A DNA stretch of 63,752 bases, counting the filler, from Octopus bimaculoides (taxonomy: Eukaryota), in NCBI RefSeq assembly GCF_001194135.2. It is 5 parts of 5 records of this genome, joined end to end, with 100 filler letters (N's around TTAATTAATTAA, not from the genome) between each part and the next. Parts side by side here need not be neighbours in the genome. Positions count along the whole stretch, not along the records: positions 1 to 24,609 come from NC_069000.1; positions 24,710 to 47,334 come from NC_069008.1; positions 47,435 to 55,704 come from NC_068991.1; positions 55,805 to 58,378 come from NC_068987.1; positions 58,479 to 63,752 come from NW_026428148.1. One strand, written 5' to 3'. Under the pieces are notes generated by a model. The model saw only the letters and a list, made by a program, of their open reading frames with translations. It did not search any database and had not been told where the DNA came from. The position numbers and the translations under genes are program-made. Positions 71 to 61,600 of this stretch are shown here, piece by piece (position 1 is the stretch's first letter; the number at the start of each line of letters is the position of its first letter).

Positions 71-1134
71 ACTAATAAAGAGCCGGTTTCTAACCTAGAT
101 CCAAGCCTCCTTCATTGGAATTTCAACATCAGCAATAGGGTGGGTCGGTATGTATGTATGTATGTGTTGGTGTTGCCTTCAACTCCAAATTGAGTTCCAA
201 GGGGTGCTGTTTCGACATACAGAATAACAGGAACATTTCCAGCTTCCTCAGATCTCTCCAGTTCTAAGGACTTCTAATGAAATATTTCAAAGAAGACGCC
301 AAAATGGCTTCAACCTTTCTATTTATAGGACATGAGGTCGCTGTTTTAAACGTTGTACGGAAGTTAAAGCGGGATAGCCACGGCTGGAAACGTAAATTGA
401 CAGTTTCGGTAAAGTTGCTATTAACGTTGGCCAAAAATATCTCAATGACAATTTGGCATAATTCTTCGAATAATAATGATTCTTGAATTGAAACTGTATC
501 GATTGGGCTTCTTTTATAATATCAGTATTAATTGCAATAATTACATTAGCTTAATTATGATCGAGAACGAAAAGGATTGAAACTGTAAACGTTCAGATAT
601 TCTGAAAAATTGCACACTTAAAAAAAAAAAAAAAAACTAAGGGAAAATAACTCTAAACTATTACAGCTCATTCTTTAGAATTATTTCCCTTGCAAGGTAT
701 GTTTTCCCTTTAGAGTTATTTCCCTTGAATGTGTATTCCCGTTCTCGGTTGGATTACAGTGTCGCTGCTTTAGCTATATATGTTGACCGAGTTTTTGTAA
801 GCGGTTATGTAGTCGTGATAGTGGTATTATGGACGACGTTGATGATGATGATGACGATGACGATGATGACGACAACAATTATGATGATGATGATGGTGAT
901 GGTGATTATCCCATTGTCGTATTCGTTGTGGCTGTTTATTTGACGGCTTCTGTCAGTGTTGCAAGACTCAAACGCGGAATTCGTTGACTACCATTAAACT
1001 CATCCATGGAATTGCTTTTGTCACTTCTGATTCAGAGGCACTGTCATGGATGGATTGACGTTTAAACTTAACCGTCATTTCACTGATAGATAGATAGATA
1101 GGGAGATAGATACACGCACACACACACACACTCA

Positions 1135-1320
1135 CACGAAGGTGTACTGCTAAGTTCTTGGCTTTTGGGTAAAAGATATGGCGGGAGAATCAGTCAATTA
1201 TGATATTATTCAAAATATTTCCCTCTCAGACCCACACACTTATTGCAGTGTTCCTTCAAATTTTTATAAGCCCCAGTAAAAGGGCGCAGGAGGCTGGGCC
1301 TTCAACAAGGCCTTTCGCGA
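1135..1320 (+). mobile_element. Short mariner-type MITE, partial
   Basis: Left end (GAAGGTGTACTGCTAAGTTCTTGGCTTTTGGGTAAAAG) matches 44187-44258. The complementary right end AAAGCCAGGGATTTTTCAGCACCC is seen at 33961-33986, following AACCAGGCCTTTC as here (AACAAGGCCTTTC). Confidence 0.6.
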
Positions 1321-1571
1321 TATATACATATATATCTATATGTATATATATCATACTTACATACATATACGTGCACGCACACACGCACACACACACACAC
1401 ACGTATCTATTTACATATATACATATGGGTGTGTTTGTGTGTATGTATGAGTGGAAATGTGTGTGTGTGTGTGTGTGTACCACAAAGCTATAGTAGAAGA
1501 CACTCATCCAATGTGCCACATTGTGGTATTAATAATAATAATAATAATAATAATAATAATAGTAATAATAA

Positions 1572-58478: not shown

Positions 58479-59329
58479 GAGGATGGTAGCGATATATTTA
58501 TGGTCAGTTGGTCTTAACAGGGTAGAAGGGATGAGCATATAGAGTGAAGGAGGAATAGGCAGATGAGGTTAAAAGGTCTAGTGAGTAGGAAGGAATGCGT
58601 GTGTGTAGTATATAGGTGGTGGGGGTATGAGTGATAAACCAAGGACAGAGATAAAGGGAAGGGACGGGTGGGAAAGGTAGTTAGTAGCATCATATTTTAG
58701 GATGCTGCCAAGCCTATTTATAGACGGTGGAAAGGGATTGAAAGAAGTGACGTAGTCTGTATGCGTATGTGGTGTTCTTGTGAAATTGAATATAGAAGAA
58801 ATAGATTTGGTGGTATATGTGTGGTGAGATGATCGAAAGGGAATAATCCTATTCAAAAGATGGTGAAAGATGGATGTTTTTGCCAGGTTGAATAGGTTGC
58901 CTGTGGGGGGTTGTGTGATTATGTTGCGTGATCGTTTGTGCAATTTTGCTTGTGATAGAACCTAAATGTGTGAAAAGAGTTATGTAATAGATTTTTCACG
59001 GTGCATTTATATATTACATTGTATCTTACGCAATGTGTTTGAAGCGGACAGATAGTCCCGGAGCGACAGTTACAAGTGTAGGAGGCTAGAGGGTTGCGTA
59101 TGCTTGTGGTTGAGTTATTATTATTGGAGGATATGTTATTAGGGGATGTGTAGGAATCTAGATCAGTGGAATTATTGTTATGGCTATTTGTCCTATCAGT
59201 GTTATTATTGGTATTGTTATTGTCTAGAATATTAATGGGTTGGGATCCATTGTGGTTTTGTTCCATTGTTAGTGTTAGAAGAACGTATATTGATGTCCGT
59301 GTTGGGTGTATGTGTGGGTCGGGTGCTGG
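58479..59329 (-). mobile_element. Penelope-like element, inverted 5' duplication (linker, Zn knuckle, GIY-YIG)
   Basis: 59097-59328 is the reverse complement of about 60174-60414, continuing into CNCRSGTICPLQTHC, NVIYKCTV and degenerate LGSITSKIAQTITQH. Confidence 0.85.
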
Positions 59330-61600
59330 GATGATGGTTTACTTATTACCAAGACTACTAACAAATCTTCCATCGAGAGGACAAAAAAGGATCTACACAA
59401 TTTTTCTCAGGTATGAATCTATCAATAACATTTGAAAACGCATACAAAACGGCTAACTTCTTGGACGTTTCTCTGAACCTAACTCGCAACACTCCCCCTA
59501 TCATAAACCCAACCAGTACCTTAAATACCTCAATATTCAATCTAATCATCACAGATCTACTTTCGATAACATAATCATAGGGATCTCTACCCGCTTATCT
59601 GATCTATCCTCTTCTGAAGAAATATTTAACAATCACGCTCCATACTACGACCAAGCACTAGCGGCTAGTAGTTTCTCACAACAAATAAAATACATCCATA
59701 ACATCATACTTAAACAATTTATATCACAAATCGCACCCCAAAGACATAACATCAATCAAAACCACAACCAACCACCCACATATCCAAGCAGACCCCTCAA
59801 TCACACCTATAACACTAGGGCCAAATCTAAGATGTTTAAATCAGCTAGCCCTACCAAAAGTATAGACAACTGCCCTCCACTTAAACACCTTAATTACAAC
59901 ATGCACAGAACCCCCCAAAAAAGCGGTGGCCGCTCCATCCTGTGGTACACCCCCTCCATTCTCTCTTAACACTAGAAACCTAGCCAAATCTTTCTTTAAA
60001 ATACTAGATTCTAACTTCCCACGACAACACAAATACCACTCTATATTCAACAGATCCACTTTAAAATTATCGTATTCTACCACTCCTAACTTTGAATCTA
60101 TTATAGCAGCTTCTAACAAACATAAACTCTTGCTCTATTACCAAAACCTAAGCAACCGTAACTATGCTAGCATCAGCACCCGACCCACACATACACCCAA
60201 CACGGACATCAATATACGTTATTCTAACACTAACACTCCTACACTGGAACAAAACCACAATGGATCCCAACCCATTAATATTCTAGACAATAACAATACC
60301 AATAATAACACTGATAGGACAAATAGCCATAACAATAATTCCACTGATCTAGATTCCTACACATCCCCTAATAACATATCCTCCAATAATAATAACTCAA
60401 CCACAAGCATACGCNNNNNNNNNNNNNNNNNNNNNNNNNNNNNNNNNNNNNNNNNNNNNNNNNNNNNNNNNNNNNNNNNNNNNNNNNNNNNNNNNNNNNN
60501 NNNNNNNNNNNNNNNNNNNNNNNNNNNNNNNNNNNNNNNNNNNNNNNNNNNNNNNNNNNNNNNNNNNNNNNNNNNNNNNNNNNNNNNNNNNNNNNNNNNN
60601 NNNNNNNNNNNNNNNNNNNNNNNNNNNNNNNNNNNNNNNNNNNNNNNNNNNNNNNNNNNNNNNNNNNNNNNNNNNNNNNNNNNNNNNNNNNNNNNNNNNN
60701 NNNNNNNNNNNNNNNNNNNNNNNNNNNNNNNNNNNNNNNNNNNNNNNNNNNNNNNNNNNNNNNNNNNNNNNNNNNNNNNNNNNNNNNNNNNNNNNNNNNN
60801 NNNNNNNNNNNNNNNNNNNNNNNNNNNNNNNNNNNNNNNNNNNNNNNNNNNNNNNNNNNNNNNNNNNNNNNNNNNNNNNNNNNNNNNNNNNNNNNNNNNN
60901 NNNNNNNNNNNNNNNNNNNNNNNNNNNNNNNNNNNNNNNNNNNNNNNNNNNNNNNNNNNNNNNNNNNNNNNNNNNNNNNNNNNNNNNNNNNNNNNNNNNN
61001 NNNNNNNNNNNNNNNNNNNNNNNNNNNNNNNNNNNNNNNNNNNNNNNNNNNNNNNNNNNNNNNNNNNNNNNNNNNNNNNNNNNNNNNNNNNNNNNNNNNN
61101 NNNNNNNNNNNNNNNNNNNNNNNNNNNNNNNNNNNNNNNNNNNNNNNNNNNNNNNNNNNNNNNNNNNNNNNNNNNNNNNNNNNNNNNNNNNNNNNNNNNN
61201 NNNNNNNNNNNNNNNNNNNNNNNNNNNNNNNNNNNNNNNNNNNNNNNNNNNNNNNNNNNNNNNNNNNNNNNNNNNNNNNNNNNNNNATGGAATATATGTA
61301 CCTCTGCTATCTATGCTATATCAACTTTTGCTGCAACATAAATTTCCGGATTATCCACACAAGGATTACTTTGCACGGATTTCTACACAGATATTTACCA
61401 CTGGAATGAAACTACACTTCAAGTACTGTTCTCTCTTTTTTCAGCACATCACACTCTTTACCACTTCATACTAAAAATATCCGCCTATGGATATAATAAT
61501 AGATTACTTTATCTTTTCTGTCTCCGATGAAGGGAAGTACTGGAACTTCCCAGAAACAGCTGTAAGACTCTATCCATAAAATACTTCTCCAACCTTACCT
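59330..61600 (+). mobile_element. Penelope-like element, 5'-truncated, interrupted by a gap
   Basis: DDGLLI RT motif at 59330, NFLDVSLNL, PYHKPN, SNH, TRLSDLSS and PPFSLNT...FP..HKYHSIFNRSTLKLSYSTTPN; frameshifted. Probably Naiad-like from the CxC-x5-C-x5-C knuckle (inference). Confidence 0.9.
61520..61568 (+). ncRNA. Hammerhead-like motif at the PLE 3' end (U4C variant)
   Basis: GUCU-CCGAUGA-A-GGGAAGU-ACUGGA-ACUUCCC-A-GAA-ACAGCUGU-A-AGAC: 4-bp stem I, 7-bp stem II and palindromic stem III. Confidence 0.75.

Follow-up and report, generated by a model that had tools for sequence, protein, structure and literature searches.

Why does a single stretch of Octopus bimaculoides DNA carry so many hammerhead ribozyme motifs, and what kind of element left them there? 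The window, i.e., the whole stretch of 63,752 nucleotides (nt) that was analysed, is AT-rich and microsatellite-laden, includes 8,515 N, and holds about ten worn motifs of the type I minimal hammerhead in unrelated repeats. An initial annotation had taken them as the trace of a diversified set of ribozyme-bearing, non-autonomous retroelements mobilised by Penelope-like elements (PLEs), including a type headed by an RNA polymerase III (Pol III) promoter. The motifs are probably fossils of PLE activity: one lies where a broken Hydra-like PLE presumably ends, two lie in short non-coding units for which copying in trans by PLE enzymes is likely, and the others probably belong to such units or to truncated PLE ends. 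The two short units are a 356-nt retrozyme-like element (2803–3435) and an abundant repeat with a tRNA-like head (47435–47740).

The minimal hammerhead ribozymes (min-HHRs) in the pseudo-long terminal repeats (pLTRs) of metazoan PLEs have a short stem I, an extra nucleotide lying between position 9 and position 10.1, a G10.1-C11.1 pair and a palindromic stem III (Cervera and de la Pena, 2014, PMC4209133). Many unrelated families occur per genome, mostly as scattered single copies (PMC4209133). The motifs of the window resemble them in all these respects, from the short stem I, the extra nucleotide, the G10.1-C11.1 pair and the palindromic stem III to the scattered singles and the number of families.

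Hammerhead Motifs and the Chance Background

In AT-rich, repetitive DNA it has to be asked whether such motifs are chance matches. The core descriptor asked for a type I hammerhead with at most one core change, an exact GAAA, a stem I of at least 4 pairs, a stem II of at least 3 and a palindromic stem III, and was run against dinucleotide shuffles, in 500-nt blocks, of the 46,714 unmasked bases (n = 300). It matched the window four times against a shuffle mean of 0.063, none of the 300 shuffles reached four, and under each of six descriptor parameter sets none of 300 reached the observed count; the comparison with shuffled sequence, proposed with the initial annotation, thus came out in its favour. 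The descriptors were drawn up after the motifs had been seen, and one of the four matches, 44599, was outside the earlier list; this site also speaks against chance, with stems of 8 and 12 bp flanking a perfect core. Chance is favoured by 206–255, which is without stem I and without U16.1 and whose loose descriptor matches in 32 of the 300 shuffles, by the three sites that need tailored descriptors, and by the absence of any hammerhead among the 150 of 233 Rfam matches listed and in two small scans, a negative that weighs on the PLE explanation too. For the set as a whole chance is refuted, and we regard it as a highly improbable account, while for 206–255 it stands.

The sites with at most one core change are 61520–61568 (+) and 44599–44671, 41946–42003, 19120–19157 and 2982–3026 (all −). 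Among the nine sites listed at the outset, those at 2982, 19115, 41946 and 61520 are therefore retained and 206–255 is lost; 26225, 29902 and 46770–46807 are recovered only by tailored descriptors, which are post hoc and hence biased, and 47457 is half a motif at a gap. The list was also incomplete, as the best motif of the window (44599–44671) and a decayed one (57344–57385) were missing from it. Its description of the motifs mostly holds. A perfect palindromic stem III, said to be present in most sites, is found in five of the nine and also at 44599 and 57344; it is not found at 2982, 26225 or 206, and at 47457 it falls inside the gap. The extra A after the CUGAUGA box occurs in six of the nine, and 26225 and 41946 have an extra G instead. 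Two of the ten motifs tested, 44599 and 61520, cofold directly into a dimeric hammerhead.

That the sequence contexts are unrelated was likewise borne out. Four of 55 pairwise comparisons score higher than any of 30 shuffles; 19115/26225 alone does so clearly (80 versus 25), the other three being ahead by 1–4 points. In this one family with two motif copies a single G-U change is seen in stem II, and MAFFT gave no structural alignment across the unrelated motifs. Judged by sequence, the motifs are minimal hammerheads of the PLE type, spread over many contexts that are unrelated. The set is real and largely expected: it consists of further members of published element types, and the extra nucleotide, the palindromic stem III, the scattered singles, the inverted 5′ copies and the PLE origin of retrozymes are all already in print. 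As expected, an octopus-type genome thereby joins those animals in which PLE-type hammerhead families are numerous. The literature search found neither octopus hammerheads nor a PLE-partnered tRNA-derived short interspersed element (SINE), Repbase, Dfam and SINEBase being outside that search.

A Retrozyme-Like Insert and Its Insertion Anatomy

The most complete insertion is that of the 356-nt element. Its direct arm (2815–3222, −) consists of a 356-nt non-coding unit with a 52-nt terminal redundancy, i.e., a circularly permuted partial tandem, and is joined to an inverted 5′ arm (3207–3426, +) that is 89.6% alike over 163 nt and carries an extension, or tail, of ∼59 nt absent from the opposite end. 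An exact 14-bp direct repeat (2803–2816 and 3422–3435) encloses the whole insert as a target-site duplication (TSD), its ends overlapping the element ends by 2–5 bp; at least 12 bp were common to only 73 of 20,000 random zone pairs. The partial tandem, the inverted 5′-truncated copy, the one-sided tail and the TSD are together the published anatomy of PLE insertions (PMC8557442), and their presence at 2803–3435 argues for the PLE reading.

The unit itself has 36% GC, and its longest sense open reading frame (ORF) from M is 45 amino acids. Every junction is visible and closes an ORF-free circle, and since the ORF-free junction is present in both arms the template was already without coding sequence. 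The unit folds with a z-score of −3.26 (none of 100 shuffles as good), and a type I hammerhead with a canonical core, the extra A and a 6-bp stem I (2982–3026, −) caps a long hairpin. Cleavage is predicted between 2988 and 2987. The inverted arm starts 9 nt past this site and is the only one of three inverted arms to start near such a position, which is suggestive only, given the microhomology at the junction and the two other arms starting elsewhere. A second fragment of the family (45690–45819, −) has a body at 45690–45792 that is 82–85% alike and a 26-nt 5′ inverted duplication of its own (45794–45819). Pattern scans for the unit gave no viral matches, and three bacterial matches were confined to a 20–21-nt pattern, i.e., chance.

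Monomers of non-LTR retrozymes (LTR, long terminal repeat) are non-coding, about 150–400 nt long, low in GC and equipped with a type I hammerhead (PMC7229834). The octopus unit resembles animal non-LTR retrozymes in being short, low in GC, non-coding, circularly permuted and provided with such a hammerhead (PMC7229834; bioRxiv 10.64898/2026.07.22.740005). It differs in that published retrozymes are full tandems with two hammerheads, whereas this copy has 1.15 units with an inverted arm inside one TSD, and in that the molluscan retrozyme in print comes from a mussel. The element combines the size and composition of a retrozyme with the insertion anatomy of a PLE in a single event. Mobilisation of animal retrozymes by PLEs has been proposed (PMC7229834; Li, Clavereau and Pollet, 2026, bioRxiv 10.64898/2026.07.22.740005), in the latter case as a vertebrate-centred argument for a PLE origin of retrozymes in which one of nine dimers was cleaved, and the insert at 2803–3435 is a single-locus illustration of that link.

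The Coding PLE and a Possible Route of Insertion

A coding PLE with the same insertion anatomy lies in the same window (58479–61600). Its broken ORF (59329–60414, +) covers the thumb and an Asn-rich linker, preceded by the end of the reverse transcriptase (RT), and an O. bimaculoides protein is 75–89% identical to it over 59330–60282. An inverted, 5′-truncated copy with a CxC-x5-C linker and a decayed endonuclease start lies at 58479–59328 (−); running from 59328 to 58479, it repeats 233 nt of the ORF stretch, with 95.9% identity over 241 columns. The hammerhead at the presumed 3′ end (61520–61568, +) has a CCGAUGA (U4C) core, a stem II of 7 bp and the palindrome ACAGCUGU. It is placed as expected for a PLE 3′ end, but a gap of 872 nt separates it from the ORF. 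The U4C variant is reported to be weak in vitro and still viable in a viroid.

Domain order, together with thumb and linker motifs matched by eye to supplementary rows of PMC8557442, suggests that the element is Hydra-clade-like. A Naiad-type identity was rejected on account of the C-terminal endonuclease and the Hydra-like linker. With Hydra-clade PLEs, Hydra-1_Obim among them (Craig et al., 2021, PMC8557442), it shares an RT followed by a C-terminal endonuclease, the CxC-x5-C linker, the thumb and linker motifs, a hammerhead near what is presumed to be the 3′ end and an inverted 5′-truncated copy. Hydra-1_Obim, with a hammerhead of its own, is already catalogued for O. bimaculoides (PMC8557442); the present element is of another family and differs from it in its hammerhead, in an Asn-rich linker like that of Adineta Pen2a and in its broken ORF.

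Head-to-head inverted 5′-truncated duplicates occur at 3207–3426, 45794–45819, 47683–47740 and 58479–59328. The initial annotation had reported 5′ inverted duplications in two non-coding elements and the PLE, all of which are found again, the second at about 47683–47740, with the small one at 45794–45819 as an addition. pLTRs are reported to mobilise unrelated sequence in trans. By inference from published work on PLEs and retrozymes, a read-through or Pol III transcript with two units would be cleaved once its hammerheads had paired, and a host ligase might circularise the cut RNA. Insertion would then be the work of the reverse transcriptase and the GIY-YIG nuclease of a PLE, with self-priming or template switching as the source of the tail, of the partial tandem and of the inverted arm placed head to head. 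Cleavage, circular RNA and Pol III transcription are predictions for these elements by analogy. An arm divergence of ∼10% and CpG-type decay point to old insertions, and by appearance most copies in the window are dead.

Several observations weigh against this explanation. No sequence similarity was found in the window comparison between either short element and the Hydra-like PLE. In the hammerhead of the 356-nt unit, stem II is only 2 bp and stem III is non-palindromic, and with a single hammerhead in 1.15 units the copy is not a tandem with two complete hammerheads, which argues against full membership among the retrozymes.

The tRNA-Headed Repeat

The second short unit matters more, because retrozymes are described as promoter-less and SINE tails are traced to long interspersed elements (LINEs). 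On the minus strand the copy in the window consists of the 3′ half of a tRNA-like head with an anticodon-like loop, a T arm and a B box (47625–47690), a middle region (47475–47624) in which an (AAT)n-type tract is followed by 45 nt that include another B-box-like motif, and the 5′ half of a minimal hammerhead (47435–47474), of which a stem I strand, CUGAUGA, the extra A and a stem II (four of five pairs) closing at the gap edge are present. On the plus strand, an inverted duplication of the 3′ part of the head (47683–47740; 44 of 49 nt) ends in (AAT)n.

Sequences from two DNA runs (X1 and X6), from one presumed RNA run and from raw RNA reads (X24) were matched to 47616–47774 at 80% likeness. 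The family is abundant, with 5,102 and 4,523 contigs in the two DNA runs, which is not a copy number, 263 contigs in the presumed RNA run, and 2,545 of 12,895,792 raw RNA reads. The majority letters restore the B box at 47649 (2,017 of 2,050 reads) and 47654 (1,977 of 2,097), and an A box at tRNA spacing is present on the loose ends behind 47690 (1,189 RNA reads; 222, 230 and 31 contigs). The copy in the window is without the A-box half, which is present at the family level. Both boxes were assigned by the consensus for such boxes. The head starts at a 12-bp palindrome, beyond which the loose ends agree at 0.57–0.76. The Pol III-type head claimed by the initial annotation is real at the family level, and its promoter function is predicted from sequence.

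The loose ends before 47624 (342 RNA reads, agreement 0.87) match 47494–47523 with a score of 38, the next best being 24. Head and middle are therefore linked in other copies, as these reads continue from the head into sequence like 47494–47523, and the link reaches sequence 19–26 nt from the hammerhead. The centre of the inversion is bridged by nine of the 24 pieces listed, with at least 31 letters on each side and 6–18 differences from this copy, five of them from one DNA run, and there are two opposite-strand joints in RNA (7 and 8 reads). The inversion is thus a recurrent one, and its site is a short inverted repeat that occurs naturally within the head. Pattern scans for the repeat gave zero matches in metagenome, viral and prokaryote collections.

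These observations lead us to propose, tentatively and at somewhat less than even chances, that 47435–47740 represents an abundant octopus SINE partnered by a PLE and not by a LINE, with a tRNA-derived Pol III head and a PLE-type hammerhead module at the 3′ end, inserted by PLE enzymes that leave head-to-head inverted duplications, i.e., a promoter-bearing retrozyme. Several points tell against this proposal. The last 19–26 nt from the middle to the hammerhead core are seen in this copy only, with stem III inside the gap. The reads joining head and middle may stem from few loci, and the DNA contigs break at the microsatellite. None of the 2,545 RNA reads is at least 99% alike to this copy, and there is no pile-up of start sites; both strands are equally covered and reads extend past the head, a pattern that passive read-through would give. 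ARAGORN found no tRNA gene and Rfam no tRNA at the scanned sites of this copy.

Alternatively, an ordinary SINE that depends on a LINE and has an (AAT)n tail might at some time have captured a PLE end, or might adjoin one. The hammerhead would then be a passenger, and the inversions would be due to fold-back or twin priming. In favour of this, the inverted arm terminates in (AAT)n, the DNA contigs stop at the microsatellite without an onward link (median loose end 21–25 nt) and the linking RNA reads may have come from few loci. Against it, one and the same sequence is present twice, head to head, in the two arms, as in PLE insertions, whereas L1 twin priming inverts part of an insert without duplicating it. 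Furthermore, the 342 reads show the middle region right after a short microsatellite, so that (AAT)n is internal in those copies. We consider a LINE-dependent SINE unlikely.

The tRNA-derived octopus SINEs OR1 and OR2 were reportedly described by Ohshima and Okada in 1994, and a third is said to bear the name OK; the tRNA-headed family could already be catalogued as one of the three. OR1 and OR2, which also lend support to a LINE-dependent origin, are in print, and the passages that cite them mention no hammerhead; what they have in common with the repeat is a tRNA-derived head in an octopus-type genome. A Pol III head joined to a hammerhead has a schistosome precedent in the high-copy repeats Sm-alpha and Sj-alpha, where a tRNA-derived Pol III promoter is followed by a hammerhead (PMC6765202; PMC2770079). 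The PLE-style extra A, the internal (AAT)n and the recurring head-to-head inverted duplications are features of the octopus repeat in comparison with Sm-alpha, for which the accessible parts of PMC6765202 and PMC2770079 name no PLE partner. The least familiar piece of the window is still this abundant repeat, in which a promoter of tRNA type and a likely hammerhead are combined. If a SINE does ride on PLE enzymes, SINE partnerships would extend to a third class of retroelement, with direct anatomical evidence for the pair, and a short testable substrate would be at hand for the role of PLE hammerheads.

Two side observations concern the same region. Behind 47689, 82 RNA reads and one contig join a truncated head to a 30-nt sequence absent from the window. 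This sequence may follow the hammerhead in the tRNA-headed family, which would put the start of the inverted arm next to the cut site. Another repeat family occupies 47736–47774, as three runs have loose ends before 47736, and a long (AAT)n tract comes next; the 3′ end of a LINE may have inserted into the microsatellite here.

The Remaining Motifs

For the other motifs (19115, 26225, 29902, 41946, 44599, 46770 and 57344), the flanking 700 nt showed no inversion involving the element, and these motifs may represent short elements or truncated PLE ends. The best-formed hammerhead of the window (44599–44671, −) has a canonical core, its two long stems, an 8-nt palindrome and GUA, and is flanked by a gap on one side and by a (TA)n tract on the other. 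The motif at 41946–42003 (−) has a canonical core, the palindrome ACUAGU and a GUU triplet; it lies within a 551-nt interval that adjoins a gap and is bounded by a 13-bp direct repeat (41661–41673 and 42212–42224). At the 3′ boundary of this interval there is an imperfect AT-rich palindrome of 43 bp (41669–41711). Two copies of a ∼170-nt repeat (19034–19201 and 26149–26321, both −) are 74% alike, have both ends in common and are both flanked by microsatellites. Their hammerheads (19120–19157, CUGUUGA core; 26225–26265, CUGUCGA core) both have U at core position 6, and A6U may therefore be a family trait rather than decay. Changes at A6 are reported to reduce activity (A6C was tested), and for A6U in both copies no parallel was found in the accessible text of PMC4209133. 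In a dead hammerhead at 46770–46807 (+) the core has suffered three G>A losses of the CpG type, a decayed one at 29902–29946 (−) has a 1-nt core deletion and an 8-nt palindrome, and another decayed one beside (TA)n (57344–57385, −) has a 5-bp stem II and a 6-nt palindrome.

It is possible, at odds that we place just below even, that several old families of autonomous PLEs left most of the motifs as 5′-truncated 3′ ends (pLTRs), the 356-nt unit being a rare internally deleted by-product that does not propagate itself. Most single min-HHRs have been interpreted as truncated PLEs (Cervera and de la Pena, 2014, PMC4209133), and seven motif sites in the window are without inversion, tandem or closed permutation. 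On the other hand, the two ∼170-nt copies have both ends in common, the tRNA head is foreign to PLE ends, and no PLE coding remnant was found upstream of 206, 41946 and 46770 by Pfam (none of nine read-through frames) or homologue search, both being weak tests. None of the window frames run through Pfam gave an RT or GIY-YIG match, nor did P0001 and P0002, and as Pfam also misses the latter two its negative result is uninformative for PLE remnants. The idea that 46770 marks the end of a decayed PLE ORF was unsupported, since the ORF at 45832–46161 gave zero matches in the homologue search.

The PLE explanation of the motifs as fossils thus covers the initial proposal in part. PLE-type motifs, two non-coding units with PLE insertion anatomy and a Pol III-type head at the family level are present. 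That all contexts are non-autonomous does not hold, as seven sites are indistinguishable from truncated PLE ends, one motif probably belongs to the coding PLE and 206–255 fails. Nor is the proposal new, since PLE mobilisation of retrozymes and a schistosome repeat combining Pol III promoter and hammerhead are already in print.

Other Repeats in the Window

A very abundant repeat of ∼390 nt with an internal microsatellite (15197–15585, 22482–22880, 39511–39903, 43590–44005 and about ten fragments) is probably the main octopus SINE, and no hammerhead motif was found in it. A further dispersed family occurs at 1573–1736, 13783–13996, 17738–18515, 40218–40347 and elsewhere, with a tandem cluster at 17606–18515. 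At 26985–27494 (+) a 169-amino acid ORF, negative in Pfam, resembles by eye the C-terminus of a Tc1/mariner-type transposase. Two fragments are LINE-like: one at 12293–12706 (−) has a PHD-finger match (E 6.8e-06) followed by RT-like sequence, and one at 11761–12138 (+) has, by eye, an endonuclease-like N-terminus.

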